IMG/VR virus record: IMGVR_UViG_3300037583_000003
Location: 29,183-93,182 of that record
DNA: 64,000 bases
Origin: a virus
Strand: one strand, 5' to 3'
The position numbers and the translations under genes are program-made. The notes under the pieces were generated by a model that saw only the letters and a list, made by a program, of their open reading frames with translations, had not been told where the DNA came from and did no database searches. Below, in pieces: positions 23,372 to 42,788 of the stretch (position 1 is the first letter of the stretch; every line of letters starts with the position of its first letter).

Positions 23372-23743
23372 ATGGAAGAACCACAACCACTCCCACAAGA
23401 TTCAGTAAAAGAAACTCTAGATCAACGTGGGAAAAGGTATGGGTCATTCGAGAAGCAAGCTGAGTTATCTCAAGCACTATCTCAGACAATGATCCGTCAC
23501 TATTTCAATAACCACCAACAACCAACTACGCCCTTACCACCCTTCATAGTCGAAGCAATCAACAACATCTGCCACAAGCTAGCTCGTATAGCTAATGGTG
23601 ACCCACTCTACGTAGATTCATGGAGAGATATTGCAGGTTACTCATCGTTAGTAGCTGAGATCTTAAAGACTACAGAGGGTGCTACAGACGCTAAGGTTAC
23701 CAACACTAAGTTCACAGACGGTAAGTGGACTGATACTACCTAA
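23372..23743 (+). CDS. DUF6378-like all-alpha protein (nucleotide-metabolism associated)
   Basis: TLDQRGKRYG...KLARIANGDP...DSWRDIAGY. Confidence 0.7.
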   Translation: MEEPQPLPQDSVKETLDQRGKRYGSFEKQAELSQALSQTMIRHYFNNHQQPTTPLPPFIVEAINNICHKLARIANGDPLYVDSWRDIAGYSSLVAEILKTTEGATDAKVTNTKFTDGKWTDTT

Positions 23744-23759
23744 ATACAAGGACTACCTA

Positions 23760-24362
23760 ATGTCAGATCTACAATTTGAGTTACCAAAAGAACCAACACG
23801 GGTATGGGACTTGTATGTACCTGTAGTTGTGAGAGGTAAGTTCACTACTGGACTTAACTACTGTCCTGATAGGAAGTACGTGAACATCTACATTACAGAT
23901 ACCATCGTAGAACCCCACCTGTACAATGAACTCCAGTACACTCTATCTCAGTGTAACGAAGGTGATGATGTAAAAATGCACATAAACACCCCTGGTGGTG
24001 ACCTAGATACTACAATAGCCGTTATGGACTCTATGAAAAAGTGTAAGGCTAACATAACTGGTTACATCACTGGTACAGTTGGTTCAGCTGGAACTATGAT
24101 AGCTATGTGTTGTACCTCAATAGAAGTATCAGATCACTCTAGTTTTATGGTACACACCTATAGCACGATTATCCAAGGTAAGGGTAATGAGGTCAAAGCA
24201 CAACAAGACTTCTCTGACGTAGCAACTGATCGCCTAATAAGAGATGTATACAAGGACTTTATGACACCAGAAGAACTAACCCTCTTAATCGAAGGTAAGG
24301 ATTACTGGTTCAATAAAGAACAACTACTTACTAGGTGGGAGAATAAAACTAATGTCAACTAA
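23760..24362 (+). CDS. clpP: ClpP-like serine protease
   Basis: INTPGG, GSAG (Ser), FMVH (His), KDYWF (Asp); ATG 23760 after AAGGA. Confidence 0.8.
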   Translation: MSDLQFELPKEPTRVWDLYVPVVVRGKFTTGLNYCPDRKYVNIYITDTIVEPHLYNELQYTLSQCNEGDDVKMHINTPGGDLDTTIAVMDSMKKCKANITGYITGTVGSAGTMIAMCCTSIEVSDHSSFMVHTYSTIIQGKGNEVKAQQDFSDVATDRLIRDVYKDFMTPEELTLLIEGKDYWFNKEQLLTRWENKTNVN

Positions 24363-24750
24363 CATAGACAAGTTTATATGCCAACACCAGCTAGATACAG
24401 ACCAACTAAAGGCAATAGCTCTAGGCAGGTACTTAGAACTAGAACCTGAAGTGTTATTACTAAGTGAAGAGTTTACTACAAACGGTAACGAGTTCCACTA
24501 TGGTACTCAAACCTATCTCGTACTACTTGAACATGAGCTGTTTGAAGTACTAGAGAAAAGGCTAGATAGTTGCATTGATGATATTATGTTACACGACATA
24601 CCTAAAGGGTTACACGACTACTTTGATGAAGAGAAGTGGAAGTCAACCGCTAAACTAAAAGGAGCTGGTCATTTTATAGCCAACTACGATGGTGAGGAAC
24701 ATAAGTACTACTCTGGCTATCAAGAGTTTCTAATATACAGAATTAACTAA
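24352..24750 (+). CDS. acidic phage protein with an ArdA-C-terminus-like motif
   Basis: DIPKGLHDYFDEEKW...GHFIANYDGEE. Confidence 0.45.
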   Translation: MSTNIDKFICQHQLDTDQLKAIALGRYLELEPEVLLLSEEFTTNGNEFHYGTQTYLVLLEHELFEVLEKRLDSCIDDIMLHDIPKGLHDYFDEEKWKSTAKLKGAGHFIANYDGEEHKYYSGYQEFLIYRIN

Positions 24751-24767
24751 CAATAAAGGATTTACAA

Positions 24768-24992
24768 ATGGAAAATAATAAAGAACTACCAGAAATGGAT
24801 GACCTATTCGGAGCACTTAAAGGAATGATGGGTAAATCAGAAGAAACAGCAAGTTCAAAGGAACGTGGAGAACTTATCGACTCTATTACACACAAAGTCT
24901 TAACATCACTAGAAGACTTACCTGTATCAGATCTAGCCTCTCACTACGTGCTAGTTAAGGTACTCGCACAACTCAACAAAGGAGTCCGTTAG
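24768..24992 (+). CDS. hypothetical protein
   Basis: 74 aa; AAGGA RBS. Confidence 0.65.
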   Translation: MENNKELPEMDDLFGALKGMMGKSEETASSKERGELIDSITHKVLTSLEDLPVSDLASHYVLVKVLAQLNKGVR

Positions 24993-25435
24993 TGCAAAAC
25001 CCAATCAAACAGATTCACAAGTTCAATCTTGATGCTGGACTCATCACTAAAGGTTACGATGACTTCTTAGAATCTAGCTTCCAAATTGAGGAAGCATTAG
25101 AGGATTTTAACCTAGCTGAACTAGCTCACGCAGTTGGTTCAGAGTCTACATCAGCTAAGGACGTATCAAGAGCTATCTTAGACCTAGCTCCTGGTGAGTT
25201 AACTGATGTACAGCGTCTAGACAAGGCTTGTGATGCATTAATCTTCTCAGTAGGCTCTATGGCAAAGTTAGGACTAAACCCTAACCAAATCACTAAAGCT
25301 GTTAACCTAGTTATGCAGGCTAATAACCAAAAACTAGTAAACAAAAAATTTGACTCTCTAGGTAAACTAATCAAAGATCCGTCTTTCATTGGTCCTGAAG
25401 CCAAACTACAACTAATCTTAGACGAGAGAACTTGA
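24992..25435 (+). CDS. MazG-like NTP pyrophosphohydrolase
   Basis: IEEALE...LDKACD...VMQANNQK...GKLIKDPSFIGPE. Confidence 0.75.
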   Translation: MQNPIKQIHKFNLDAGLITKGYDDFLESSFQIEEALEDFNLAELAHAVGSESTSAKDVSRAILDLAPGELTDVQRLDKACDALIFSVGSMAKLGLNPNQITKAVNLVMQANNQKLVNKKFDSLGKLIKDPSFIGPEAKLQLILDERT

Positions 25436-25436
25436 C

Positions 25437-25682
25437 ATGGATCTAATCCCATTCATCATAGTGGGGTTGGCTGTTGCATTCAACTTCTGGATAATCAAGG
25501 TTAAGTTTGAGCGTAAGAGATACTTAGATGCACTACTAGATCTATTTGTCCTTACCTTTATATCATTTCTATTTGCAGGATCATTTGGTGGTCTAATAGT
25601 AGCTACTGTAGCATCAGCTATCATAAGTGTACTACTCTACATTTTCCCACCAAAACTACCTAAACTTAGTGACTACATCTAG
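25437..25682 (+). CDS. small membrane protein
   Basis: 81 aa with about three hydrophobic segments. Confidence 0.7.
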   Translation: MDLIPFIIVGLAVAFNFWIIKVKFERKRYLDALLDLFVLTFISFLFAGSFGGLIVATVASAIISVLLYIFPPKLPKLSDYI

Positions 25683-25759
25683 GTAATCTTACCCTTGATA
25701 ATACAATTACAAACCTATACAGTAGTTGACCCTAAAAAACTTAACTACTAGAGGAACAC

Positions 25760-28444
25760 ATGACTAAACACATCCAAGTAACCAAACGAGATGGTAATAC
25801 AGAACCACTAGACCTAGACAAAATCCACAGAGTTATATCTTGGGCTGTAAAAGGACTAGAGGGAGTATCTGTATCAACAATAGAGCTACAGTCACGTATC
25901 CAGTTCTACGATGGCATAACGACTTCAGATATCCACGAAACAATCATAAAGTCTGCTGCTGATCTCATATCTACGGAATCACCAGATTACCAGTACGTAG
26001 CTGCTAGGTTAGCTATGTACCACTTACGTAAACGAGCATTTGGCAGTTTTACTCCTCCATCATTAGAATTACACATAAACACCTTAGTAAAGTCTAACCA
26101 CTACGACAAGCACATACTTGAGGACTACTCTAGTGCAGAGCTATCAGAGTTAGAGGACTCTATTAACCATGCACGTGACTTCACCTTCAGTTACGCTGGA
26201 GTTAAACAACTTGAGGGCAAGTACCTCCTACAGAACAGGGTAACAGGTCAAATATATGAGTCTCCACAGTTCATCTACATGCTAGTTTCCCTGTGCTTAT
26301 TCGCTAGCTACCCTAGAGAAACTAGACTACAGTATGTAAAGGATTTCTATGAAGCAACATCTACATTCAAACTATCTTTACCTACACCAATACTAGGTGG
26401 AGTCAGAACACCATCTAGGCAGTTCAGCTCTTGTGTACTCTTAGACACTGATGACTCACTTGACTCTATCAACTCGGTATCATCAGCCATAGTTAACTAT
26501 ATCTCCCAACGTGCAGGTATAGGCGTAAACGTAGGACGTATTCGTGCTTTAGGTAGTGAGATACGTGGAGGTGAAGCTAAACATACAGGATTAATTCCCT
26601 TCATCAAACTATTTCAAGCCTCAGTAAAATCTTGCTCTCAAGGTGCTATTAGAGGTGGAGCTGCTACCTTATTCTATCCGCTATGGCACTTAGAGGTTGA
26701 GTCACTTCTAGTACTTAAGAACAACCGTGGTGTAGAAGAGAACCGAGTTAGACACCTAGACTACGGTGTACAAATCAACAAGCTTATGTACCAACGTATG
26801 ATTGAGGGTGGGACTATTACCCTATTTAGTCCATCTGATGTACCTAACCTATATGACTCCTTCTTCTCAGACCAAGACGAGTTCGAGAGACTATACAAGA
26901 TCTACGAATCTGATCCTAGTATCCGTAAAAAGTCTATACCAGCAATTGATCTATTTGTGCAACTAGCACAGGAACGAGCACAGACTGGACGTATCTACAT
27001 ACAGAACGTAGACCATTGCAACACCCATAGCCCATTTGACCCAAATGTAGCACCTATCAGACAATCAAATTTATGTGTTGCTCCAGAAACCCAAGTACTA
27101 ACTACTAACGGTTACATACCTATAGCTGAGTTAGATGGTACAAAAGTACAAGTATGGAATGGTATAGAATGGTCTAGTGTACACGTACATAAGACAGGAA
27201 CTAACCAAAAGTTACTTAAAGTTACTACCTCTAGTGGGCAGACTTTAGAGTGTACTGAGTACCATAAGTGGTACATATATGACGAGTACTCTGGCTTACT
27301 GAAAGTTAAGCGAACGGTTAACCTAGAAGCTGGTGATAAACTAATCAAGGCTAGTCTACCATCAGGGGAGCTAGTACCTGAAGAGTTCAATAAAGTCATC
27401 AGTGTCACAGACGAAGGTAGAACAGATGACACCTATTGTTTTACTGAGCCTAAACGAGGTATGGGTATGTTTAACGGCATACTAACTGGTAACTGTTTAG
27501 AAATAGCTTTACCAACTACTCCACTGGGTCGAACTGAATACGAAGGTGAGATTGCTTTATGTACACTATCTGCTTTCAACCTAGGAGCTATAGATTCTCT
27601 AGATGAACTAGAACACCTATCTAACCTAATCGTTAGAGCTTTAGATAACCTATTAGACTACCAGAACTACCCTGTATCAGCTGCTGTAAAGTCTGGACAA
27701 GGACGTAGACCTCTTGGTGTTGGTGTAACTAACCTAGCCTATTACCTAGCTAAGAACGGTGTTTACTACTCTAACGGTTCAGCTAACAACCTAGTCCATA
27801 GAACCTTTGAGGCAGTACAGTTCTACCTTTTAAGGGCATCTAACAAACTAGCTCGTGAAACAGAACCTTGTGAGTACTTTCATGAGACTACTTATGCTAC
27901 TGGTGTGCTACCTATCGACACTTACAAGTCTGATGTAGACACCGTATGTAATCAACCACTTCTACTAGACTGGGAGAGTTTACGCTCTGACATAACGGAG
28001 CATGGTTTACGTAACAGTACACTAAGTTCACTAATGCCCTGTGAAAGTAGTTCGATCTTGTCTAACTCCACTAACGGTATAGAACCTCCTAGAGGCTACG
28101 TATCTGTGAAGTCTAGTAAGGATGGTGTCCTAAAACAAGTAGTCCCAGAATACCTCAAACTAAAGCAAAACTATGAGCTTCTATGGGACATACCAAACAA
28201 CACTGGATACCTAGAGTTAGTAGCTATTATGCAAAAGTTTGTAGATCAAGCTATCTCAGCTAACACTAACTATGACCCTACTAAGTTTATAGACTCTAAA
28301 GTACCAATTAAGCAAGTACTTCAAGACATCCTATACAGCTACAAGCTAGGTCTTAAGACACTCTACTACCACAATACTAGAGATGGTGCTTCAGACCAAG
28401 CAGAAGTAGATGACGGATGTGCTAGTGGTGCATGTAAACTTTAA
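25760..28444 (+). CDS. nrdA: class Ia ribonucleotide reductase alpha subunit, intein-containing
   Basis: ATP cone VTKRDG, QFSSC, CSQGAIRGG, SNL-[intein]-CLEI, KTLYY, C-terminal CASGAC. Confidence 0.97.
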   Translation: MTKHIQVTKRDGNTEPLDLDKIHRVISWAVKGLEGVSVSTIELQSRIQFYDGITTSDIHETIIKSAADLISTESPDYQYVAARLAMYHLRKRAFGSFTPPSLELHINTLVKSNHYDKHILEDYSSAELSELEDSINHARDFTFSYAGVKQLEGKYLLQNRVTGQIYESPQFIYMLVSLCLFASYPRETRLQYVKDFYEATSTFKLSLPTPILGGVRTPSRQFSSCVLLDTDDSLDSINSVSSAIVNYISQRAGIGVNVGRIRALGSEIRGGEAKHTGLIPFIKLFQASVKSCSQGAIRGGAATLFYPLWHLEVESLLVLKNNRGVEENRVRHLDYGVQINKLMYQRMIEGGTITLFSPSDVPNLYDSFFSDQDEFERLYKIYESDPSIRKKSIPAIDLFVQLAQERAQTGRIYIQNVDHCNTHSPFDPNVAPIRQSNLCVAPETQVLTTNGYIPIAELDGTKVQVWNGIEWSSVHVHKTGTNQKLLKVTTSSGQTLECTEYHKWYIYDEYSGLLKVKRTVNLEAGDKLIKASLPSGELVPEEFNKVISVTDEGRTDDTYCFTEPKRGMGMFNGILTGNCLEIALPTTPLGRTEYEGEIALCTLSAFNLGAIDSLDELEHLSNLIVRALDNLLDYQNYPVSAAVKSGQGRRPLGVGVTNLAYYLAKNGVYYSNGSANNLVHRTFEAVQFYLLRASNKLARETEPCEYFHETTYATGVLPIDTYKSDVDTVCNQPLLLDWESLRSDITEHGLRNSTLSSLMPCESSSILSNSTNGIEPPRGYVSVKSSKDGVLKQVVPEYLKLKQNYELLWDIPNNTGYLELVAIMQKFVDQAISANTNYDPTKFIDSKVPIKQVLQDILYSYKLGLKTLYYHNTRDGASDQAEVDDGCASGACKL
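27074..27493 (+). mobile_element. mini-intein in NrdA (140 aa)
   Basis: CVAPETQVLT...LECTEYHKW...TYCF...FNGILTGN followed by +1 Cys; no endonuclease domain. Confidence 0.93.
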
Positions 28445-28481
28445 CTAACCCGTGGGCTAATAACCCACACAGGAGTAACAA

Positions 28482-29603
28482 GTGACAAACACTTACTCAA
28501 CTTTTAACAGTACTAAGAACAACCAACTACTAGAGCCAATGTTCTTTGGTCAGAATGTGAACATAGCTAGGTATGATCAACAAAAGTACCCTGTATTTGA
28601 GTCTCTTACTGAGAAACAACTATCGTTCTTCTGGAGACCAGAGGAGATTGACCTATCTAATGATAGAGCTGAATTCGCTAACCTACCAGAGAATGAGAAG
28701 CATATCTTCCTTAGTAACCTTAAGTACCAGATACTACTAGATTCTGTTCAAGGTAGATCACCTAATGTAGCATTCCTACCTATTGTATCTATCCCTGAAC
28801 TAGAGTCTTGGATCGAAACTTGGTCATTCTCTGAGGGTATACACTCTAGATCATACACTCACATCATTCGTAACATCGTAGCTGATCCATCTATCATCTT
28901 CGACTCAATACTAGATAATGACGAGATCATCAAAAGAGCTGAGAGTGTCACTAAGTACTACGACAAACTCATAGCTCTAACAAACCATATGTATGCTAAC
29001 CACATAGACATTAGCCTAGATGCTCCATTCCGTAAGGAGATCAAGACTGCACTATATCTAACAATGGTATCAGTTAATGTACTAGAGGCTATTAGATTCT
29101 ACGTATCATTCGCTTGTAGTTTTGCCTTTGCTGAACGAGGTGTTATGGAAGGTAATGCTAAAGTAATCAAGCTTATAGCTAAGGATGAAGCAATCCACCT
29201 ATCAGGTACTCAGCACATACTCAGCATCATGTCTGAAGGTACTGATGATCCTGAGATGGCTGAGATTGCCTTAGAACAGCGTGAAGCTACTTACTTTATA
29301 TTTATGGATGCAGCTGTACAAGAGAAGCAATGGGCTGACTACCTCTTTAAGGATGGCTCTATGATAGGACTTAACAGTGTCATACTGAAGAACTACATAG
29401 AGTACATCACTAACGTCAGACTGAAGGCACTTAAACTAGACCCAATATTCCCTAAGACAGTTAATCCCTTACCTTGGATGAACCATTGGTTAGTTAGTGA
29501 CAACGTACAGGTTGCACCACAAGAGTCTGAAATCACCTCCTATCTAACTGGTCAAATCGACTCTAGTGTCAACGTTAGTGATTTCAGTGATATGTCTATC
29601 TAA
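28482..29603 (+). CDS. nrdB: class Ia ribonucleotide reductase beta subunit
   Basis: [45 protein letters not shown]. Confidence 0.97.
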
Positions 29604-32600
29604 TAGGATAAGTTAATGCCTCCAATCCAGATGGAGTTATAGCCCTAACTAAGGTCTCGAATGGGTTGTACACCATACCTCCTAGGTTCTTAGTTATCAT
29701 TGACTGGTCTGTTACATCCTCTACGTCACCTACAATATACTCTTGGCCAAGTATAGCTATCAGTAGTTTAGCTGGATGACCCTTAGCTAGTTCGGCTATA
29801 GCTTTCTGTATCCTTGTAAAGTACTTAGTGAACATAATGAACCCCATCTGGTTAAACCACTCTACCAACCTACTATTAGGCTTGTTATAGTTAATAAATG
29901 CATCCCTAACAGTTTTTAAAGCCTTGTCCTTACTTATACCTTTCCTAAGCATTAAGTGGTACTGGGCATACCTAGCTACAAAATCCGAGTACTGTGTAGC
30001 TGTACTCATCATCTTAAATACACTCGTCTTCTCATTCAAATACAACAAGTTAACACCATCCCTAACAATAGTAGGTGCTCCTTTCAGCCTATCATCTAAG
30101 ATGTCTGTAAACATACTAGAGTTGTCACCTTCCCCAATATCAAGTTCTTCCACTATAGAAGTGTAGAACCCCCCGTCTATCAAATCCTTAACTGGACTAC
30201 TCTTAATATCCCCTTCTAACGCACTCAATCTCCTAATCTCAACACTACTAGCTAACCCAGCTTTTTCCTTTCCCTTTAACCTTATAACTTCTTTCTGGCT
30301 ACTAATAAAGTCATTCAAGTCCCTAACCCCTTGCAACTGCAACTTAGCTATCTCTACTGGTGAATGTCCAGTCATTACTGAATACATCAGGTTTGACACT
30401 ACATTACCTACAAGAACAGTTGGTGTTCTTAATATCACATCTACCTTAGCTACTTTAACTATCTCTTTCCACACTTTCTCAGCTACTCTTAGACCATAGT
30501 TCATACCTTCAGGCAATATCTTACCTCCAGGCACATCACTTAATCCTAACTCTCGGTAACCCATAATACTATGTAACATATCTCGTCTCAGTGTGATCCC
30601 GTCTTTAAACTCTAACTTTATCTCAGTAGGTACTAATCCCCACAACTCATTCAACTCTTTATCATTAGATTTACCATCAAGTGTCACATACTCCATAGAG
30701 TTAAGTTTACCCATCATGTGTTTCTTACTCTTATTCTTATCTGCGTCCTCTTTAACATACTTCAGTAACTCTTTATTGAACGTACTAGACTCCATCTTGT
30801 CATAGGTACTCGCGTACATACTTCCTATAACATTAGACACTCTCCTATCCATCTTCAGTATCTTCACTTTGTTCTTCTTACTCATATTATAACTATACCC
30901 AACAATCCTACCACTATTGTTCAGCTTAGGTGACAGCAGCTTATCATCAGCAGTTGCTACATAAGTACCTGCTTCCATTTCCCTTACAATCTCTTCTGCC
31001 CTAACATTTATAGCCCTAATCAACTTATCAGCTTTAACTCGTTCCACTACATTGTCACCATCTAGTCCTACCTTACCAGTAACCGATGTACCTCTTGTAT
31101 TCTTACCAGTAGTTCTCAGTGCCACCCTATGGAATGTCTGTGTTACCTGTAAACTAGACACATAGTAACCTAGCTCACCTTCTGAGGCATCCAAACTGTA
31201 TCTAGGTACTTTGTGTGACAACTTGTAACCTAGACGCTTCATACGCTTCTCATCAGCTATTGGTGCTGTAGTTCCCTCTATATTCTGATCTAGTACTGGC
31301 TTACTGTAACCCTTAATAATCCTCCTCTTATCCGCATGTGTAGTGAATAACTCTTTCTCAGACATCTCTTTATGTGCAACTTGATAAGCTACTACCTGTT
31401 CTACTCCTGACTTCTCATTCTCCATCAAGTCTAGGAATATGTCCTTATCTGTTTTACTACTCACTTGCAACCCTCTTAGAGTAGCTAACGTATCCACTAT
31501 ATCCACTAACTCCTTAGTATTATCAGGATACCTAACCCCTTCAACACTTACTCTATCTACTATATTCTTAGCATTGGTCATCTGAACTATTCCACCATCA
31601 CCATCCACCATGTACCTAGCTAAACCATCTATTTGTGCTATGTAGTAGTTATACGATCTCTTATCCGTTTCACCCTTAAGCTTATCCTCTAAATTCTTAA
31701 TCTCTTGCTTCAACCTGTTAGGATACTTTATTAGATCAACCACATCATAGTCATAGGCTATAGTACCTAGATCAATATCTACAACTATAGACGTTAAACT
31801 ATTCTCTTCATCTACGTCTAACTTCCTTGTAAACCCAGACTTTATCATCTGTATCTTATCTAACCTAGTTAGTGCTCTATGCTGATCTATTTGGTTACTG
31901 TAGTACCCTAGTTGCTCTATCATATCCTGATAGTCGTCACTCTCTGACATATCCCTTATAGTAGACCATAGTGTACCTTCAGGCTTCAATGACTTAACTC
32001 CAGTAGTACTAGATAGAAACTGTATTGTTCTTTTAGCCTCCTGACTAACTAACGACTTAGCTATGGTTGCCACTATGTGGTAACCTTGTTTCACTACACC
32101 ACCTCCCACAAGTTTACTAGTATCTTGTCGCTTACCCGCTTTATCCTTCATCTTATCTATTCTAGTCGCTAGGTTATCTTCAGCTTTATTGAACTGACCT
32201 ATAAGCTTACCTAGTATACCCTCTCTTTTACGTACTACTTGCTTCTTGTTAGTCTCTGCTAACCTAGCTACTAACCACGCCATCTCTTGGTAGTCACTAC
32301 CAGTAGGTATCTTCCTATTCCATACCACTAACCTATCAAACAACTCCCTCACATACCCTATAAGCTTAGTTACCAGATTAGTCTCATCAGTAGTCACCCT
32401 ATTAGTCCTACGATCAGCCAAGGCTTTCATAGTAGCTTTATTAGTCCTTGCAAACGCTATGAACTCATGTAGTCCTACAGCAGTATCTGCGAAGTAGTCC
32501 AAGTCAGCTTGAGCTTGCACCAAGTCAGGCTTATCCATGTACTTTGATAGCTCCTCTGGTGTCATACTAAGGAAACTATTCTTTATAGCTACTATTCTCC

Positions 32601-33504
32601 TTCTTACGCTTGCTATGGCTGGGTCTCTACTGTTAAGTGCATACGCTGTTACTACATGGTACAACTCATGTGTATAAGCTTCTAGTGCTGACCTATTAGT
32701 ATCTCTCGGTCCTAAACCAACATACACATCTGCTTTGTTACCGTCAAACTTAACCATACCACCATTCCTGGTTGTCCTACCTAGATGTACAGTTACATCA
32801 GGCATTAAGCTAACTAGAGGTGCTACTATACCTGATAGGTTATCTAGCAGTGTAGCCTTATGCCACTCACCAGTATCTGTTGGATCTAACTTATCTACTT
32901 CCTCAGCTAACTCCATGATCTTATCAGGGTTACTTATCAAGTCTCTAGCTACTACCTCGTACTCCTCGTAACCCCTATTCAGAAAGTCCTTATCAGACCC
33001 TAGGTTATCTAACTCTTCACTCGTTACTTGGAAGTCTACACCATCTAGCTGTATAAACGCTTTACCTCTTAACTTTCTAGTGACAGTCCTACCTGTAGTA
33101 CTACGGGTAAACCTAACACTGTAACCATCATCCACTTTAACTATGTCCTCAACTACTACACTAACCCCGTCAACAGTAGGACTATTAGCATTTATCATAT
33201 CTTTAGTTGCTGCAACTACACTCCCTAACTTACTCTCAGGAGACCTACCCTCATCTACACCCCCTTCATCCACTTTAGTTTCTTTAACTTCCTTAGCTTT
33301 AACTATGGGTTTAACGTCTACCATACCTTCTTTAGGTGGTTGCAGTTGTCTTAGATTATATGCAAACTTATCTACGGTATCCTTTACTTCCTTAGTGGTA
33401 GTTCCCTTCTTACCCTTAACTAACGCACCTAGCTTACCTTTTACAACAGGAGAACTTAAGAACCCCTCCATTTCTTTTTTGAACACATCTACATTACAGC
33501 TCAT
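29596..33504 (-). CDS. virion RNA polymerase C-terminal part (N4 vRNAP CTD-like) as a separate gene
   Basis: ATG 33504 has an AGGAGA RBS and ATGA overlap; HELYH zincin-like motif; end QYSDFVARY...FINY...[12 protein letters not shown] resembles the N4-type vRNAP C-terminus. Confidence 0.8.
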
Positions 33505-36500
33505 AAACAATCTCCTGCCTTATCCAATTTCTTTTTCAGTACACTAGAGTCAAATAACTTCCTTATAGCTATACCGTCTTCTTTACTACCAAGCTTAACC
33601 AAGCTTTCTACCAGTGCATTATACTCTTTCTTTACAGCTTTCCTATTACGATCTCTTATAACGTCAGGAGTAACCTCGTAGGCAGACCCTATCGGACCTA
33701 CAAACTGACCAGCCCTAGCGGTAGTACTAAATAGCTCCTTACGTCTTGCTCTAACGTCATCAACAAATACCTCAAGTTTACCTACAGCTTCTTGCAGTTT
33801 CTCACTACCACTTAGTTCATAAGCTTTCGTTCCCATGTCTAGTAGTGCTTCTGCTGGTGTGTACTGTCTAACATCCTCATACCAATTCTTATTCAGTATG
33901 TTTATCTCTCCCATCTGACCTATACCTAGTACTGCTGCATCATGTACAGACAGGAATCCCTTATCACTATCCACCAACGACTGTCCCATAGTATTACCGT
34001 CACTGGTCTGTACAGGTAGAACTAACGCAGATGCTCCAGGAGATCTAAACCCTCTAGCTAATAGTGATGTAGTTAGGAACTCTCTATCACCAGTTAGCTC
34101 TATCTTAGAGGTTTCTGTGTGTACATCTTTATCTAACGCTCTCTGGTACAGAAACAGTTTATCCTTAGCTGACGTACTAGATGCTGTATCTATTGCAGGA
34201 GCTAACCCACTCTCTATTAACTTCTTAACTATACCATTCTTATCAGAACTTGTTACTTTCAATCCAATCTTGTCTACCTCCTTATCATACTCCTTCTTGA
34301 ACACAGCAAATACTTGCTCTGACAACTCAGACATAGCCTTGTTCATTATCAGGTAGTCTCCAAATACCTCATCAAGTGTCTCTATAAACTCTACCTTATA
34401 CTTAGCTTCTAGGTAGTTAGTTAGAACTGCATCAAGCTCACTCAAGCTATCCAAGGACTTCTCAGTTAACTCAGCTCTAGCTTCTACTATCCAGTTAGTG
34501 TCCTCCTGCTGTGTGCTACCACCACCAGCTACCTCTCTTAGTTGCTTGTCAGTTACAACGTAATTACCATCTCTACCTACTTCAAGCAATCCAGCAACCA
34601 TAACTTCCTTCTCTCCAGATATTACATCATCTACAATCTTGAACAATCCAGCACCATAGTTGAATATCATTACAGGAGTCTTCATTATATTACGTAAACC
34701 CTTAGATACTGTGAGATCCGAGGTTAGTCCTAATCTATCCCAAGCTACATCTATCGGTGACACATCAACCTCTATTGATTTTTCAGGGTCATTAGGATTT
34801 ACTGTAGACTTCATACCAACCTCACTAAGCTGACCTACTTTACTAGCTAGTACAGACCCACCTTCTAGATAGACATCGTTTTCTTTAGCTCTATCCATCT
34901 CATTCATACTCATGTGGCTAATTTTATCCTCAGCTATTAGACCTACTTTAAACAACCATTTCTTAGCATTACCTGTAGGTGTCTGCATAACTTTGTAAGA
35001 GAAACCATTAGTTAATCCATCTATCTCCACAACCATAGTAGACCCAAACTCTTCATTCCCATCTAGTAGCTTCTCTATATTGGCTATAGCTAGCGCAGCA
35101 TGTCCTAGATGATCTGATACTAATGCAGCTTCTTGCTGATCTTCTATAGAACTACCTATAATTTTCCTAGCCTGTGCAAGTATCTTAGACTGGTTATTCT
35201 TATCTATAGCTATGCCATCAGCTAACTTACTTCCATCGAATGCTTGGACTATACCATATAGGAACATCACATCTTCATCACTAAGATTACTAGTATTACC
35301 ATCAGACATAAACTCATTAATAGTAGACTTGCTTAACTGTACTCTAGTAGCAGATGCGGTAACTAACCACCTAGCTAACTGTTTATCGTTCTGTGGGTTA
35401 ACCTTACTGCTATCAAGCTGATACCTACCAGCCTTAGTCAAGAACCACTCAAAGAACACTTCAGTATCTCCATCGTTAGTTAGGAGTTCCAACATAGCCT
35501 CCACGTTATTTTTTATTTCTATGTTCCTGCTACGTTGAGCATCCCTTTCATCATACGATACTGATTTGTCACCCTCAGCGTACTCTTTATAACCTATAGC
35601 TTTCATCAAACTACTCTTTGTAGCCTCACCAAGGATACCTCTTAGAGCTTGTACGCCATCGTTCACCTTATAACCTATAGACTCTAACTTGTTCAAGGCT
35701 TTAACCTGTCTAGGGTTAGCTACAGTATACGGATTATTCTTCACGGGAGCTTTAGTCTTCTCTTTAGGTTTAACTACCTTATAGTTCCTAGAGGAGTCTA
35801 TACTTATACTGAACTGATTCTCCAACTCAATCATCCTTGTAAGTGTAGCTTTCCTACTCTCGAAGTACTGGTCTGTTGGCTTAATAAGTACACTACCAGA
35901 AGTATCACTTGCATCGTTACCCATAGGTAGCTTTGTTATTTGCTCACCTACTACTTGTTGCTGTGTGAAGTCATGTATAAGTCCAGCCTTTGCTGCATAA
36001 ACCAGACCTATATTACCAAAGCTAGTTACCAACATAGCCATCTCAGTATCTGTGGTTTCCTCACCCTTAGTTATACCAAGATTCTTCACTATAACAGCAC
36101 CAAGACTATCAGCTTCAAACTTCATTAGTCCTCCACCATGCTTAAGTACGTAAGCTGCAATAGGTGCTCCAGCATCATCATCCTTAGTTACCCCTAACAA
36201 CTCAGTGGCCTCATCCAGAGTTCTACGCTTAACCAGATTCACTGCGTTCTCTGACATGTACTGCAATACGCCAGCTTCTATAGCTACTACAGTGTTAGCA
36301 TTCATCTCATCAGCAACACTAGTATTCGAGTAGTCACCTGAGTTTCTCTCCTTCAGCTTCTTACTTACAACTACCTTAGAGTCATCACCGAAGTCTACAG
36401 TAGGTTTGTATAGATAAGCTAGTGCTGGATTCTTCTTCAGATCAGCAATACCTATAACACCTTGTCCATCATAACCAGTTTTCCTATTAGGTACTTTGAT

Positions 36501-39500
36501 TGCTTCAAACAATGTATTAGCTACCTTAGTAACAGCAGGTGTGAACTCTGCCTTTATAAGGTTCAATCCTGTAGGCATGCTCACTCTATACACGTCACCT
36601 AGTGGTCTAGCCTTCTCACCTCTTACATTGTGAACCAGTAACGGTATACCTTTCTGTGCTACATCGTTATACAACCTAAAGCTAGCAACCTCACTTACTG
36701 CTGCATGCAGTTCCTCAACTTCTTCCTTAGTCAGTTTAACTCCACCTTCCTCGCTAAGCTTAGCCTTAGTCCCTAAGTCCTTCAACCTAGCTAGTAGAGA
36801 CTCTACTTCTACAACAGTGTCAGACTTAACCTTATCTGGTAACCTAGTTGAGCTATCTCCAGTGACTTCATCCATCGCTTCTTGATCCAACTGTAGCTGA
36901 TCTACATCAGAGGTATCAAAGTCATCCATACCAAAGTCTTCTGGATTAAACGTCTCAAAACTACTCATTATGTCAGCTATACTCTCACCATTAGTTTCAG
37001 TGGTAGGTACATCTTCATCTACTTCAAATACATCACCTAACTCACTAGCGTCAAAACTCATATTCCTAAAGTCATCTAGGTTTATTTCTCCACTATCTTC
37101 ACTGTTATCTACTTCATCATCAACAGTAGCCTCACTAACTTCAGTAGCCACTTCTTGCTCAACTTCCTTGTTAGCTTCCTGTGTACTCTCCTCTTTAACC
37201 TCAGTATCTACCTTCTCAGTAGTACTCTTAACTTCTTCCTTACCTACTCCTACTTCAGGTTCTTTATCCCCTTTAACAACAGCTCCTGCTTCTTTCCTTG
37301 CAGACTGCATCTTTCTTAGTTCTTTCTGGACATCAGCTATATTCTGGCCTTGCTCTGAGTCGTTAGTAGCTCCCTCTCTATACCCAGCTAACCTAGTAGA
37401 CAGTAGCTCCATAGACCTTACTTCACCAGCTATAGCTAGCACAGTACCATAGACACCGTAACCTACTTCTGGTTGGTTGTCTTCACTAAGTGCATTACCA
37501 GTTTTCAACATAGTCTCTATTACAGTATCGTACGCTACATAGTTCTTATTACCCGCATGTTCAAACTTATGTACTTTCTTCTTTGCAAGACTCTTGTAAC
37601 TTGCTTGTACTACCTTTAGTGCTCCTTCTCTATCTAACTCTTTTCTGTCCATTACCTCTGCTACTTGGCTATTTACCTCAGCCTCAACTTCCCTTATAGC
37701 AGACACGTACGATGCCAGTTTACCTTCCTGCATTGCTTGAAACCTAACTAGCTTCACAACACTCTCATTAAACAATCCTTCGTCAGCACTCTCAATTCCT
37801 TCCATCGCGCTATCATAGTATGTAAGGAATCCTTTACTACCTTTAGCAACATCATTAGAGACCTCAGACATACTCTTCCTAACCTCTCCAGCTTCTCTAG
37901 CCATAGATAGAGACAACTCACCAATACCTAAGTCCATGTCATCAGCCATGTCTGGTACTTGAGCCTTAGCAGTATCCACAATAGCTTTAAACTCAGTATC
38001 TGTTAGCCCATTAGCTGCTAACAGTTCTATAGTACTAGCTACTTTCCTTGCTTTATCTACATCAGCCATAGACGAACCGTATATAGCTCCTTCTTGCTCT
38101 TGTAGAACTTCTTTCAACCTGTTTATTGCAGCTACTTTAATTCTCTCTGAAGGTGCATTATCAATAAGATGCCTAAGCTTAGACTCTAGCGTAGGTACTT
38201 CACCACTAGTCTCAAACTCCTTAACTACCTCTTCTGAGGACTCTTGACTTCGTTTAACACTTACCTCTTGATCTTCTTTAGCTTCCCTATTCACTGACCT
38301 TTCTGTCTCTACACTAGACTTCTTATCCTTGTACTCTCTTAGTTGCTCTATAGCACCACTAGTAGACACACCAGTAACCTTCAAACCAGCACCTACAGCA
38401 GAGAATTGTAGTGAACCACCTGCACCTAGTCCTGCACCAGTGATACCCTTGATTACAGTCTCTTCATCTACTAACAGCTCTCCAGCTTCGTCTAGTACAC
38501 TAACAACAGTACCATTATCATCTATGTTTAGTTGCACATTAAGTACCTCTCCCATAGCTTGTATATACTCTTGTCCAGCTTCCTTACCCATGTTACCTGC
38601 TAGACCTGCTGCTACACCTAACCCCTTAACTACTAGCCCTACTCTTCCTTCTCTTGGTAGTGAAGGTATAGGTATTGCTTTCATAGCGCCAACTAGCTCC
38701 TGTACTGCTAGTGGAGACTTTATAATACTAGTCATAGCTAACCTGTCCAATCCACCCATAGCTACGTTAGTTATCATTATGGTAGACACTTTCATAATAG
38801 ACGGGTCAGAGTTATGAACTTCTTTATATTCATCTACCTCATTGTTAGTCTGTCCAGCTGCCCACTGAAGTAACCCAGCTGACTTCTGCAACACTTCCGT
38901 ACCTTTCTTGAACGTACTAATAGCTTCATGTCCAGTTTTAGCTGCTTTAGTTACTCCTAACCAAGGAATAAACATAGCAGCTACTGTTGCAATACTCTCA
39001 GCACCTAGCTCTGGGGTTACACCTTCCCACACCAACTTAGCTACATCAGCTAACTTGACTTCTGAATCATCATCGTTCATACCCTTATATATACGTTCAG
39101 CTAGTATCCCAGCCTTCCTGCTGGCCTCTTCACTAAATCTAGGATTATAGCTAAACGTATCGTTAACCATTTTAGCTTTCTCTTCTTTAGTACCTATGTC
39201 CCATAACCCTGTAGCGTCACCTACCCAATCAGCGAAATCAACCACAGCTACCTTAGCGAGTGTACCTACTGCTGCTTTACCAGTGTTCAATGCTCTTCCT
39301 AGTACTCCCATAGTCTCTAACTCAGCTTCATGCCTCTGATCTCTATAGTAGTCACCACTAGAGACTTCCTTACTGCCAGCTGTACCACTAGACCCATTAC
39401 CTAGAGCTAGTACATCTTTCATCTCACTACTATACCTATTGGCAGCACTAGTAGAGTCCATAAACTCACTAGCGTAGTCCAACCTAGACTGGTAGATTGC

Positions 39501-40829
39501 TCTTACCTGTTCTTCTACACTTGCGTCATTACCTAAACCATTTAGTGCTTTACTCAGTATTTGCCTGTTACCCTTATAACTATGTTGCACTGACTGTGAC
39601 CATAGAGCTTCTTGTATCATTCTGTCACTAGTATCTAACCCTAGAGACTCACCTAACTGCTTAACTGGCTCATAGTGAGACTCTGCTATAAACTCCTTCT
39701 GAGCTACTTCTAGCTTATCTCCAAACTTACCTACTACCTTGTTGTACTGCGTATTAAACTCATCAGATCCAGGTTTCATACCCTTGAAGAACTTAGAGAA
39801 CCTACTACCTTGGTCAGACTCTAAGAACTTACTCATAGTCCCTGCATCACTAGCTATCTGGTAGTTACCGTAACTAACACCTCCAGCATCACCAATACCA
39901 CTACTGATAGTACCTACCCCACCAGTACCACTTTCATACTTATTAGCTATAGAGCCTAGTTCGCTGGTCTTGTTTCTAACTTTAGAGTATCCAGATAACC
40001 CTAGGAACTCCTTATACAGTTCACCCTTATTGAATTCTGGGTCATCCCTAGAGTCACCGAAAAATCCCTCAGTGCTCTTATACATTTCAGTTGGGCTAGA
40101 TCCAAGTAACGCTTTTAACCTATTGTACTCACCACTATTACCAACCTCTCTACGAGCAACCCTATCAGCTAGTGCTGAGTCCCTACCATGACCTAGTTTC
40201 TCTAGAGTCTTAGCTACACCCTTAGGTAGGAATAGCTCGAACTGCTTGTCATTCAGATCTACACCACCAACTCCTGGAGCTTCACCATAAGATCTACCTC
40301 CTTTCCACAGGTTATCTACACCCTCGTTCAATGCTCTCTTAGGTTGATACCTGTAATCAGAGTCTCCTAGGTCAGCTCTAGATATTCCAGGTTTAATCCA
40401 GTCATCACCACCTTTACCTCCATAACCGTAGAATATAGAGTAGTCATCCATATCCCCAGTGAACTCTTCCATCTCACCTTTACTATTCTTTGTAACAAAC
40501 TTATCCCCAGACTTGTACACACCTAGGTCGTTAACAGACTGCCCTAACAGATACTGGTACTGGTTATCTTCCAATGAGTTAGCTATCTTATTTCCATAAT
40601 GGTCTTCAAACCTACCGTCATCAGATACTAACCTTTCATTCTCGCCATTAGGCTTAGTCTCATCTACCCAACTAGGGGTAACTACATTACCTAACCTCTC
40701 AAGCTTCCTCTGCTTAGCACTAGCAAGTGTATCTACCTTTGTAGGTGTAGTTGTAGGAGTGAAGTCAGGAGTGTAGTTAAACTGGTCTTCTGTAAGTCCT
40801 AGGTCGTTAGCTGTAAATTCTCTGCTCAT
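33501..40829 (-). CDS. virion-encapsidated RNA polymerase (N4 gp50-like): N-terminal and polymerase domains
   Basis: 2442 aa; GRYQLD...NPQNDK, motif A EIDGLTNG, motif B RNIMKTPVMIFNYG, motif C SVHDA; lysozyme-like insert near the N-terminus. Confidence 0.88.
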   Translation of the reverse strand: MSREFTANDLGLTEDQFNYTPDFTPTTTPTKVDTLASAKQRKLERLGNVVTPSWVDETKPNGENERLVSDDGRFEDHYGNKIANSLEDNQYQYLLGQSVNDLGVYKSGDKFVTKNSKGEMEEFTGDMDDYSIFYGYGGKGGDDWIKPGISRADLGDSDYRYQPKRALNEGVDNLWKGGRSYGEAPGVGGVDLNDKQFELFLPKGVAKTLEKLGHGRDSALADRVARREVGNSGEYNRLKALLGSSPTEMYKSTEGFFGDSRDDPEFNKGELYKEFLGLSGYSKVRNKTSELGSIANKYESGTGGVGTISSGIGDAGGVSYGNYQIASDAGTMSKFLESDQGSRFSKFFKGMKPGSDEFNTQYNKVVGKFGDKLEVAQKEFIAESHYEPVKQLGESLGLDTSDRMIQEALWSQSVQHSYKGNRQILSKALNGLGNDASVEEQVRAIYQSRLDYASEFMDSTSAANRYSSEMKDVLALGNGSSGTAGSKEVSSGDYYRDQRHEAELETMGVLGRALNTGKAAVGTLAKVAVVDFADWVGDATGLWDIGTKEEKAKMVNDTFSYNPRFSEEASRKAGILAERIYKGMNDDDSEVKLADVAKLVWEGVTPELGAESIATVAAMFIPWLGVTKAAKTGHEAISTFKKGTEVLQKSAGLLQWAAGQTNNEVDEYKEVHNSDPSIMKVSTIMITNVAMGGLDRLAMTSIIKSPLAVQELVGAMKAIPIPSLPREGRVGLVVKGLGVAAGLAGNMGKEAGQEYIQAMGEVLNVQLNIDDNGTVVSVLDEAGELLVDEETVIKGITGAGLGAGGSLQFSAVGAGLKVTGVSTSGAIEQLREYKDKKSSVETERSVNREAKEDQEVSVKRSQESSEEVVKEFETSGEVPTLESKLRHLIDNAPSERIKVAAINRLKEVLQEQEGAIYGSSMADVDKARKVASTIELLAANGLTDTEFKAIVDTAKAQVPDMADDMDLGIGELSLSMAREAGEVRKSMSEVSNDVAKGSKGFLTYYDSAMEGIESADEGLFNESVVKLVRFQAMQEGKLASYVSAIREVEAEVNSQVAEVMDRKELDREGALKVVQASYKSLAKKKVHKFEHAGNKNYVAYDTVIETMLKTGNALSEDNQPEVGYGVYGTVLAIAGEVRSMELLSTRLAGYREGATNDSEQGQNIADVQKELRKMQSARKEAGAVVKGDKEPEVGVGKEEVKSTTEKVDTEVKEESTQEANKEVEQEVATEVSEATVDDEVDNSEDSGEINLDDFRNMSFDASELGDVFEVDEDVPTTETNGESIADIMSSFETFNPEDFGMDDFDTSDVDQLQLDQEAMDEVTGDSSTRLPDKVKSDTVVEVESLLARLKDLGTKAKLSEEGGVKLTKEEVEELHAAVSEVASFRLYNDVAQKGIPLLVHNVRGEKARPLGDVYRVSMPTGLNLIKAEFTPAVTKVANTLFEAIKVPNRKTGYDGQGVIGIADLKKNPALAYLYKPTVDFGDDSKVVVSKKLKERNSGDYSNTSVADEMNANTVVAIEAGVLQYMSENAVNLVKRRTLDEATELLGVTKDDDAGAPIAAYVLKHGGGLMKFEADSLGAVIVKNLGITKGEETTDTEMAMLVTSFGNIGLVYAAKAGLIHDFTQQQVVGEQITKLPMGNDASDTSGSVLIKPTDQYFESRKATLTRMIELENQFSISIDSSRNYKVVKPKEKTKAPVKNNPYTVANPRQVKALNKLESIGYKVNDGVQALRGILGEATKSSLMKAIGYKEYAEGDKSVSYDERDAQRSRNIEIKNNVEAMLELLTNDGDTEVFFEWFLTKAGRYQLDSSKVNPQNDKQLARWLVTASATRVQLSKSTINEFMSDGNTSNLSDEDVMFLYGIVQAFDGSKLADGIAIDKNNQSKILAQARKIIGSSIEDQQEAALVSDHLGHAALAIANIEKLLDGNEEFGSTMVVEIDGLTNGFSYKVMQTPTGNAKKWLFKVGLIAEDKISHMSMNEMDRAKENDVYLEGGSVLASKVGQLSEVGMKSTVNPNDPEKSIEVDVSPIDVAWDRLGLTSDLTVSKGLRNIMKTPVMIFNYGAGLFKIVDDVISGEKEVMVAGLLEVGRDGNYVVTDKQLREVAGGGSTQQEDTNWIVEARAELTEKSLDSLSELDAVLTNYLEAKYKVEFIETLDEVFGDYLIMNKAMSELSEQVFAVFKKEYDKEVDKIGLKVTSSDKNGIVKKLIESGLAPAIDTASSTSAKDKLFLYQRALDKDVHTETSKIELTGDREFLTTSLLARGFRSPGASALVLPVQTSDGNTMGQSLVDSDKGFLSVHDAAVLGIGQMGEINILNKNWYEDVRQYTPAEALLDMGTKAYELSGSEKLQEAVGKLEVFVDDVRARRKELFSTTARAGQFVGPIGSAYEVTPDVIRDRNRKAVKKEYNALVESLVKLGSKEDGIAIRKLFDSSVLKKKLDKAGDCL

Positions 40830-40937: not shown

Positions 40938-42443
40938 CTACTGGTATAACCTACCGAAGTACAGCTTAACTAGGTCAGGTCTAATAGGTGCTAGTACTTG
41001 CATGGCTATTTCAACCATTCTCTTATCACCAGAGTTAACAGCATTAATAGCTAGTTCAGTAGCTTCCTTACTACCTAGACTAGCATAGTCAACCATATCA
41101 GTGTACACGTCTTTATCGGACTGTACTGGCTCTTCTTGTACTCTAGGTCTAGGTACACTAGTAGTAACTTGAGAAGCAACTTGAGGAGCAACCAGCTTAC
41201 CGACATCAGACATAGTATCTACTTCAGGTACTAGCTCCCTAGCAGGGACATTGTAACTACCCATAGCTTCCCTTCCCATATCAGACAGTAGCTCACTAGT
41301 GTTTCTAGACTTAACATTTTTCATACCAGTTATAGCTTTTAACAGCTTAGGGTCATTTATCTTAGCTTGCATACCTTCTAGTGTTTTTCTGGCTGAGGTA
41401 TTGTACTTTTTAGGACTCTTACGCATGTCTTCTATAATTACCGATAGTTCATCTGCTGTCTCAAAGTTCATATCGTTATCCCATGAACCTAGAGTGAAGG
41501 AGTTCTGTAACGCTCTAAGAATCTCTTTAGGTGTAGGCTTTGATTTAGTACCATCAGGGTTACGTATTGTAGTTTCAGCTACAGAATTAACAGCACTAAT
41601 AGTCTCACCCCTATCCCAGTCTAGACTCCATGATTCATCAGGTAGTACCTTGTTGATGTACTCGTTAATATCACTCTTAGTAGTCTTATCGCCTTTATCT
41701 GAGATCTTCTTATCAAACTGCTTAGATACAGCTAGAGCGTCTTTAAACTGCTCTTTGAACACCTTACGTGTATACTTTAGATTATCTACTCTCTGCTTAA
41801 GTTCCGTATTCACTTCCTTAACACCAGCTCTTTCGTCAGTTACCATTTCCTTCTTGGTGGTATACGGCTCAGAATAATTATCAGCCATAGCTTTAGCTTG
41901 TTTAGCATCACCAGTTTTCTCCATAACATCAGAGTACACTTGACTATAAGCACTCCCTTTAGTAGGTTCTAATCTACCCATCCCTTCTGACACTTTAACA
42001 GTCAGATTCTTCATATCTTGATTGAACTGGCCTAGTATCTTAGGGTTAGCTTCAAGCTCAGACAGACTAATACCATCAGACTTATCTGTCTTTAACCCAT
42101 ACGAACTCATCAGATCCCTTATCGGGTCACTAGCAGCTTCTGAGAAGGCTTTAAGTGCAGGAGTATCTATACCTTGACCACCTAGCTTACCGAACTCAGG
42201 TGTATAGTTTCTCTGGAACTCTGTAGCTATCTGCTCACCCTCGAACTGTGTAGCCCTTTGATCTGCTGCAACTTGAGCACGATCATTGGTTAACTCCCAC
42301 CTTCTGTCTGCTTCAGCCTGAGTTACTTTCCTATCCTCACCATCTAAGTACTTCAAGTAAAGACTACCTGCGTTGTCTAAACCTTTCTGTAACCCAGCTA
42401 AAGGATTTACTATAGAACCTACGTTAACCTTAGTACGTGACAT
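40938..42443 (-). CDS. putative ejection/internal virion protein (N4 gp51 position)
   Basis: 501 aa, cysteine-free, helical; directly upstream of vRNAP. Confidence 0.6.
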   Translation of the reverse strand: MSRTKVNVGSIVNPLAGLQKGLDNAGSLYLKYLDGEDRKVTQAEADRRWELTNDRAQVAADQRATQFEGEQIATEFQRNYTPEFGKLGGQGIDTPALKAFSEAASDPIRDLMSSYGLKTDKSDGISLSELEANPKILGQFNQDMKNLTVKVSEGMGRLEPTKGSAYSQVYSDVMEKTGDAKQAKAMADNYSEPYTTKKEMVTDERAGVKEVNTELKQRVDNLKYTRKVFKEQFKDALAVSKQFDKKISDKGDKTTKSDINEYINKVLPDESWSLDWDRGETISAVNSVAETTIRNPDGTKSKPTPKEILRALQNSFTLGSWDNDMNFETADELSVIIEDMRKSPKKYNTSARKTLEGMQAKINDPKLLKAITGMKNVKSRNTSELLSDMGREAMGSYNVPARELVPEVDTMSDVGKLVAPQVASQVTTSVPRPRVQEEPVQSDKDVYTDMVDYASLGSKEATELAINAVNSGDKRMVEIAMQVLAPIRPDLVKLYFGRLYQ

Positions 42444-42452
42444 AATCCATCC

Positions 42453-42788
42453 TTATACGTTAGCTACAGGTGCTTTAAATGCAGCACTTATATTCCTACG
42501 ATTCTGCATAGTCTCAGCAGCAAACTTACGATTCTGTTTAAGACCCTTAAGCTGTTCTTCCATCACTGGCTTCTGTTGTAGGTAACTAGCAAGACCTAAT
42601 CCTAGTTGACCTAACCCTAGAGCACCACTAACAAAACCCTTATTAGTTAAGGTATCTTTATTCTGATCCCACCAACTTAACTCAGCTTTAGGCTCAACAG
42701 CACTATAACCGGGTTTGAATGGTACAGTAGCCTGACTACTAGTTAACAAGCTACCTAGTCCTAGTTGTCCCATATAATCTTCTGACAT
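42453..42788 (-). CDS. small internal virion protein (N4 gp52 position)
   Basis: Gly-rich hydrophobic segment GALGLGQLGLGLASY followed by a Q/N helix. Confidence 0.6.
   Translation of the reverse strand: MSEDYMGQLGLGSLLTSSQATVPFKPGYSAVEPKAELSWWDQNKDTLTNKGFVSGALGLGQLGLGLASYLQQKPVMEEQLKGLKQNRKFAAETMQNRRNISAAFKAPVANV

Follow-up and report, generated by a model that had tools for sequence, protein, structure and literature searches.

Facing terminal cysteines at the break of a split virion RNA polymerase in an uncultured N4-like phage, and a probable disulfide joint between its pieces

The split polymerase genes and their two cysteines

The window analysed here, a stretch of 64,000 nucleotides, is part of a 93-kb metagenome-derived virus record (IMG/VR record IMGVR_UViG_3300037583_000003) and encodes the virion RNA polymerase (vRNAP) of an N4-like phage in two overlapping genes. 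The upstream gene (piece 1) carries the N-terminal domain (NTD) as well as the polymerase domain, and the downstream gene (piece 2) carries the C-terminal domain (CTD). Each of the two proteins contains a single cysteine (Cys), and these residues face each other across the break. The genes and the features of their junction are as follows.

33501-40829, minus strand: vRNAP piece 1 gene (2442 aa; membrane/ejection NTD and T7-like polymerase domain; sole Cys at residue 2441)
33511-33516, minus strand: AGGAGA ribosome-binding site, 6 nt 5' of the ATG of piece 2
33507-33509, minus strand: TGT codon for Cys2441, the last residue but one in piece 1 (..AGDCL-stop), by codon check
33501-33504, minus strand: ATGA stop/start overlap that couples both genes (stop TGA at 33501-33503)
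33496-33498, minus strand: TGT codon of Cys3 of piece 2 (MSCN..), by codon check
29596-33504, minus strand: vRNAP piece 2 gene (1302 aa; CTD; ATG at 33502-33504; sole Cys at residue 3)

Translation, Cys counts and codon checks confirm what a first-pass annotation of the window had reported, namely that the sole Cys is the penultimate residue of the 2442-aa protein and the third residue of the 1302-aa protein, that the genes are coupled by ATGA with an AGGAGA ribosome-binding site, and that the neighbouring 501-aa protein is free of Cys. The span 33496-33509 extends exactly from one Cys codon to the other. At the proteome-wide rate of the window (0.65%), about 24 Cys would be expected in the 3744 residues of the two pieces, where two are observed, and the positional chance of one Cys each lying this near to the facing ends is ~2e-6. 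The first ~110 residues of piece 2 are rich in Lys, Val and Gly and include few hydrophobic residues, a composition that would be as expected of a linker.

Identification as an N4-like virion RNA polymerase

Both pieces match PHROG 2206 (virion RNA polymerase; a profile of 3406 positions), piece 1 over profile positions 651-1885 (aa 938-2341, E=7e-50) and piece 2 over positions 2266-3387 (aa 198-1281, E=7e-156), and they are therefore the parts of a real split vRNAP. When compared with a hidden Markov model (HMM) built from 25 unsplit vRNAPs including N4 gp50, aa 382-2384 of piece 1 align to about N4 residues 131-2064, and aa 99-1298 of piece 2 align to about N4 residues 2258-3496. Furthermore, piece 2 matches the CTD of the N4 vRNAP in PDB 9PNR/11GP (PDB match E=4e-37). 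In N4, linker 1, between NTD and RNA polymerase, comprises residues 907-1007, and linker 2, between polymerase and CTD, residues 2102-2123 (PMC13434306), or about 2105-2122 as judged from domain limits (PMC13492108). The HMM and domain mapping thus place the break at or near the flexible polymerase|CTD linker.

Together, the two pieces are homologous to an N4-like vRNAP across NTD, T7-like polymerase domain and CTD, and both catalytic motifs B and C of single-subunit RNA polymerases are present in piece 1.

33939-33941, minus strand: catalytic Asp2297 of polymerase motif C (SVHDAAV), piece 1
aa ~2045-2058 of piece 1, ending at aa 2058: polymerase motif B (K..P.M...YG; here KTPVMIFNYG)

Two features of N4-like vRNAPs are altered at this locus. 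Instead of one polypeptide of about 3000-3900 aa, there are two genes of 2442 and 1302 aa, and instead of complete absence of Cys, there are two Cys, both at the junction, with none elsewhere.

The neighbourhood is also N4-like. The vRNAP genes lie within a block of virion genes that also encodes the portal, the major head protein and tail proteins, and the polymerase follows two small Cys-free genes in the positions of the N4 ejection-protein genes, for whose products no family match was found. This gene context would fit a vRNAP that is packaged in the virion and ejected.

40938-42443, minus strand: 501-aa protein directly upstream of piece 1, Cys-free, in the position of N4 gp51 (ejection protein)
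42453-42788, minus strand: 111-aa protein, Cys-free, in the position of N4 gp52 (ejection protein)

Protein identity to the described Schitoviridae is only about 25%, and comparing the junction region as DNA with 50,697 phage records gave no match; the phage is new at the DNA level. A search for close relatives in IMG/VR with a single protein found nothing, and a word-index protein search returned only the query itself. Relatives were reached only by an exhaustive HMMER search and an alignment-based locus search.

Terminal cysteines across the family

The terminal Cys is conserved family-wide. Searching 1.84 billion cluster representatives (50% identity clusters) by HMMER with piece 2 gave 1744 matches, and the best 150 of these are mostly proteins of 1.2-1.8 kaa that start where piece 2 starts. 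In 118 of 126 split-size CTD homologues, a Cys lies within the first seven residues (at position 3 in 85 and at position 4 in 24), and in 116 of the 126 it is the sole Cys; elsewhere in the split-size homologues, only four Cys occur in 174,757 residues. When 60 sequences are aligned (mean column identity 25%), 15 columns are invariant, and Cys3 is among them. Among the 85 C-terminal pieces with Cys at position 3, residue 2 is Ser, Ala or Gly in 57. Methionine aminopeptidase removes Met before small residues such as Ser, Ala and Gly, so that Met removal would leave the Cys beside the mature N-terminus; Cys3 of piece 2, which is preceded by Ser, is expected to become residue 2 in this way.

The upstream partners carry the complementary residue. 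The genes upstream were inspected in 80 IMG/VR loci, each retrieved with flanks of 10 kb. At all junctions in which both partners were readable (25/25), the upstream protein contains a single Cys, which lies 1-6 residues from its C-terminus. When 11 N-terminal pieces are aligned over their last 400 aa, only two residues are invariant, the catalytic Asp and the terminal Cys, and the tail that separates them varies freely in length and sequence. A Lys often stands after the C-terminal Cys of the upstream pieces; a neighbouring positive charge favours the thiolate.

Unsplit relatives, error-like breaks and phylogeny

The presence of the Cys covaries with splitting. N4 gp50, which the first-pass annotation had cited as a Cys-free single chain of ~3500 aa, indeed has 3500 aa and no Cys, and the other 24 unsplit vRNAPs likewise have none. 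Among 191 Schitoviridae, vRNAPs contain 0.00075% Cys (PMC11445570). The comparison that had been suggested as a check on the proposal, between split and unsplit homologues, thus came out in its favour: terminal Cys are kept in the split proteins (118/126, and both partners at 25/25 junctions) and are absent from the 25 unsplit ones.

A second kind of control is provided by breaks without Cys (L054, L049 piece 1/2, L045 and L040), all of which fall inside conserved domains. At the L054 break there is an A5GA4 run, and a 1-nt slip restores the frame; the L049 break is an in-frame TGA inside the conserved IDGAxM polymerase motif (L049:1060-1150), which may be a sequencing error or else a stop codon that this phage recodes; the L045 break consists of overlapping frames in the HExxH region; and the L040 break has N in the sequence. 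From their sequences, these Cys-less breaks look like sequencing errors.

In a FastTree phylogeny of 165-173 CTDs, the split/fused state needs 10 changes, at least seven of which are forced by well-supported branches. The fused proteins nested among split ones (P0039, P0042, P0050, P0066 and P0069) have no Cys. Eight phylogenetically independent contrasts were drawn, with the eight Cys-less split-size proteins counted as exceptions; in about seven of them the N-terminal Cys goes with the split, and in none is the direction reversed (median p 0.016).

Variant splits and inserted pieces

In five loci (L005, L006, L007, L014 and L011) the protein is in three pieces, of which the middle one bears a Cys at either tip and none elsewhere. 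Four of these middle pieces, from related IMG/VR phages, are SF1 helicases (AAA_30 + UvrD_C_2) of 816-1010 aa that are located between the polymerase and CTD pieces; to judge from sequence, the helicase looks like extra injected cargo on the same chain.

L005:3370-5997, L006:6916-9855, L007:3370-5820 and L014:4397-7429: SF1 helicase middle pieces, Cys at the two tips only
L011:8517-9743: middle piece of 408 aa, of no known family, Cys at the two tips only

A second split site was found in three further loci, in which HMM mapping places the cut between NTD and polymerase+CTD at about N4 residues 934-999. The N-terminal piece there ends in ..ECK or ..GCALK, and the polymerase-CTD piece starts with M-x4-C. 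In another locus (L078), a 2438-aa piece starts with MSTDAC, and its partner is not visible on the locus.

L057:2090-13447, L063:1306-13489 and L082:427-12061: vRNAPs split at linker 1, with 1-3 unrelated genes between the pieces

Where split genes are adjacent, the gaps between them range from -8 to +26 nt. A signal at the nucleotide level, or one of translational coupling, was rejected as the meaning of the conserved codons, the Cys pair being kept across these gaps and across 1-3 intervening genes. Since the pair also occurs at the second split site, around the middle pieces and between non-adjacent genes, the signal lies in the proteins and not in the coupling sequence.

Terminal Cys were also seen in some other proteins. 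Four tandem overlapping paralogous genes outside the window (G000:C1:24371-26368, plus strand) encode proteins of 154-176 aa, three of which end in GKGC plus two residues, and in one of these three that Cys is the sole one; the GKGC ends resemble the C-terminal tips of the relatives' vRNAPs (..KGCK). Within the virion gene block, a 120-aa protein (48618-48980, minus strand) starts with MSCN, as does the CTD piece. It has Cys at positions 3 and 102 and matches PHROG 1084, of unknown function.

Comparison with known systems

The vRNAPs of N4 (gp50) and other Schitoviridae, such as gp71 of Pseudomonas phage DEV, with the structures PDB 9PNR, 11GP and 2PO4, are homologous to the two pieces in NTD, polymerase and CTD, and avoid Cys. 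The N4 vRNAP is a single 3500-aa Cys-free chain, whereas that of the window is cut at linker 2 with one Cys at each cut end. The N4 protein consists of three folded units on two flexible linkers, and a beads-on-a-string passage through a ~35 Å channel, NTD first, has been proposed (PMC13434306). Its CTD packs on the polymerase, which is thereby autoinhibited, and must come off for initiation (PMC13492108). The CTD is also the encapsidation determinant of N4 (cited in PMC3821669).

In the Alteromonas phages AltAD45-P1 to P4, the vRNAP (ORF127/ORF126) is split at the same linker into proteins of 2495 and 1409 aa. This split has been published, the break having been resequenced by PCR and both polypeptides seen on gels (Garcia-Heredia et al. 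2013, PMC3821669). Its authors took the presence of cysteines as a sign that the proteins are not injected, and did not remark on their terminal positions and pairing. In AD45-P1 and AD45-P3, the sole Cys lies three residues from the C-terminus of one piece and at position 4 of the other (..HCKQ-stop / MTIC). The AltAD45 proteins are only about 23% identical to those of the window, and the genomes are of similar size (93-104 kb). In both, ClpP-like and class Ia ribonucleotide reductase genes adjoin the polymerase; in the window, a ClpP-like protease (PF00574) and the subunits of the class Ia reductase are encoded at 23679-29603 (plus strand), next to the end of the polymerase gene. This neighbourhood supports placing the phage with AltAD45 in one group of ~100-kb N4-like phages.

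A parallel to the Cys pair itself comes from cyanopodophage A4 (Anabaena phage A-4L), in which cryo-electron microscopy revealed a disulfide between gp27 Cys1715 and gp26 Cys5 in the outer layer of the pre-ejectosome, where a cleft of gp26 accommodates the docked C-terminal helix of gp27 (PNAS 2025, PMC12002296). According to the A-4L sequences, these large internal/ejection proteins, gp27 (upstream; 1717 aa, sole Cys at 1715) and gp26 (downstream; 1114 aa, sole Cys at 5), are encoded by adjacent genes, and Cys2441 of 2442 and Cys3 of 1302 in the window have this same signature of sole terminal Cys. The A4 structure shows that such a signature can be a real bond in a virion. Searching A4 gp26 and gp27 with the vRNAP HMM gave no match, and the likeness is therefore one of mechanism and not of family. 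A4 differs from the present phage in being a T7-like phage of 42 kb, in whose description no RNA polymerase is mentioned (PMC12002296), and its disulfide was presented as one isolated feature of the structure and not generalised to split genes. Disulfides have also been documented elsewhere in phage particles, for example in the crassvirus tail (PMC10172136).

Split inteins likewise divide a protein between two genes, and their downstream half begins with a Cys. However, protein trans-splicing is excluded here, for only 0-5 residues lie beyond each Cys (one after Cys2441 and two before Cys3), which leaves no room for a Hint domain. Pfam searches found no member of the Hint family, and AltAD45 virions hold two polypeptides, not one spliced product (PMC3821669).

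The split (AltAD45, 2013), the avoidance of Cys by vRNAPs and one disulfide that joins ejection proteins at their termini (A4, 2025) have thus all been published, and we found no paper that connects them. Within the library covered, literature searches also found no paper that links split vRNAPs to terminal disulfides or states the rule described above for vRNAPs. The first-pass annotation had considered the joint a candidate for an undescribed mechanism; this would hold for the family-wide rule, but not for the split or for a terminal disulfide as such.

A probable disulfide joint between the pieces

We consider it probable that the terminal Cys form an inter-chain disulfide by which the split vRNAP is re-joined, and is packaged and injected as one chain. 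The vRNAP would be encoded in two pieces cut at the flexible polymerase|CTD linker, and the Cys at the C-terminus of piece 1 and that at the N-terminus of piece 2 would form the disulfide in the virion. The bond would replace the missing peptide linker, so that the two proteins act as one linear beads-on-a-string chain. The joint would be almost unbranched because both Cys lie within a few residues of the chain ends. Piece 1 would then be packaged along with the CTD, the carrier of the encapsidation function in N4, and both pieces would be pulled one after the other through the ~35 Å tail/ejectosome channel. Finally, the reducing cytoplasm of the host would cut the bond and free the CTD from the polymerase; in other phages, a helicase or the NTD would be freed.

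Re-joining of the pieces tail to head by a disulfide had been proposed in the first-pass annotation, and it gains support from the comparison of split with unsplit proteins and from the A4 bond. For the phage of the window itself, the covalent bond is what we infer, together with its role in packaging and threading and its reductive release.

Several points weigh against such a joint. Virions assemble in a reducing cytoplasm, and no phage thiol oxidase or thioredoxin was found among the scanned subset of window proteins; oxidation would have to take place inside the capsid or after lysis. In this respect, the class Ia (aerobic) ribonucleotide reductase fits an oxic habitat, where virion thiols would oxidise. 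Furthermore, eight of the 126 split-size homologues lack the N-terminal Cys. They may reflect misplaced starts, be fragments or be genuine exceptions; when two of them (P0055 and P0078) were each used alone as queries in locus searches, nothing was found. In AltAD45, the pieces ran as two separate bands of 270 and 175 kDa on a gel whose conditions, reducing or not, are unstated (PMC3821669), and these bands would count against a stable bond only if the gel was non-reducing. Covalent continuity would presumably be required for the split chain, and the N4 data on CTD release and on beads-on-a-string passage come from a single chain.

More generally, terminal Cys clasps might offer short-tailed phages a modular means of linking several separately encoded cargo proteins, here polymerase domains, an SF1 helicase and functionally unassigned modules, into a single unbranched chain of fixed order. 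Such a chain would enter the capsid and pass through the tail as a single thread, and the reducing cytoplasm would release its enzymes. We offer this broader proposal tentatively and rate it at slightly short of an even chance. If it is true, genes could split, fuse, insert or move apart without loss of delivery.

Both N4 structure papers of 2026 raise, as an unsolved question, the passage of a ~400-kDa protein through a 35 Å phage tail. If the pieces must be covalently re-joined at their tips, the ejection machinery would need continuity of the chain and not a folded complex. A disulfide joint, if true, would explain why ejected proteins otherwise avoid Cys, would show how cargo such as the helicase joins the injected chain, and would be a rare redox-cleavable linker that delivers enzymes into bacteria. 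It would also provide an experimental handle, by means of reducible bonds and Cys-to-Ser mutants, in the cultured Alteromonas phage system.

Alternative explanations

The alternative that survives best is that the terminal Cys do join the pieces, but by something other than a disulfide for threading: by a bridging metal ion, by bonds to a third virion protein, or by a disulfide that only recruits piece 1 through the CTD. The comparative data establish that the pair is selected wherever the split occurs and leave its chemistry undefined, the encapsidation role of the N4 CTD (PMC3821669) would suit recruitment, and the A4 disulfide was described as stabilising a docked helix in the pre-ejectosome and not as a threading device (PMC12002296). 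However, recruitment alone would not need the extreme terminal placement of the Cys, 1-6 residues from the ends, and attachment of all pieces to a common hub is at odds with middle pieces that have exactly one Cys at each tip, which fit a chain instead. A metal site at the tips was rejected, because the alignment of 11 N-terminal pieces and the listed termini show no His, Asp or additional Cys that is conserved close to either end. Overall, we regard this group of explanations as unlikely, though worth keeping in mind beside the disulfide joint.

It is much less probable still that the pieces are separate and unlinked, and that the terminal Cys are a signal for modification or processing or are tolerated only at disordered ends. 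Such a state would agree with the two polypeptides on the AltAD45 gels (PMC3821669; gel conditions unstated), and in ejected proteins, which avoid Cys, the termini might be the sole tolerated places. Tolerance, however, does not predict near-invariance (118/126, with Cys3 invariant in 60 sequences that otherwise diverge to 25% mean column identity), nor can it explain the strict pairing across junctions, the middle pieces with two Cys tips or the loss of both Cys on fusion. As for modification or processing, neither a signal peptide nor a lipobox precedes the N-terminal Cys, and an intein would find no room; lipoprotein-type modification was rejected because a signal peptide is lacking.

Finally, the metagenomic origin of the record and the error-like breaks in some related loci might raise the suspicion that a single gene was broken by faulty assembly or sequencing, with the Cys there by chance, but the conservation data are taken to refute this. 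There is a proper ribosome-binding site and an ATGA overlap at the break, the same architecture recurs in >100 clusters, the AltAD45 break was resequenced by PCR (PMC3821669), error-like breaks never carry the Cys, and the positions would arise by chance at only the ~2e-6 given above.

Other features of the polymerase pieces and of the window

Each piece contains one further recognisable feature, as follows.

39447-39959, minus strand: VgrG3-like C-terminal domain (peptidoglycan hydrolase-type), aa 291-461 of piece 1 (Pfam PF21277, E=2.7e-36; PDB 4NOO/4NSO matches)
32656-32670, minus strand: HELYH (HExxH) motif in the CTD, aa 279-283 of piece 2, conserved family-wide

The VgrG3-like module, as predicted from sequence, would be in keeping with an ejection protein that has to traverse the cell wall. 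The HExxH motif of the CTD is invariant or nearly so across 60 homologues, and the DEV paper mentions a putative zinc-binding motif in this region of the CTD.

The family A DNA polymerase gene of the window (19752-23109, plus strand) is also interrupted. Using tblastn with the AltAD45 polymerase, three coding pieces were recognised (19752-20771, 21262-21516 and 22573-23109), which are separated by two group I introns. The Rfam model RF00028 scores 61 bits at 20761-21231, which exceeds the gathering score, and 35 bits (E=1e-6) at 22253-22520, which falls short of it, and the second gap also contains an open reading frame for an HNH endonuclease (21709-22419).

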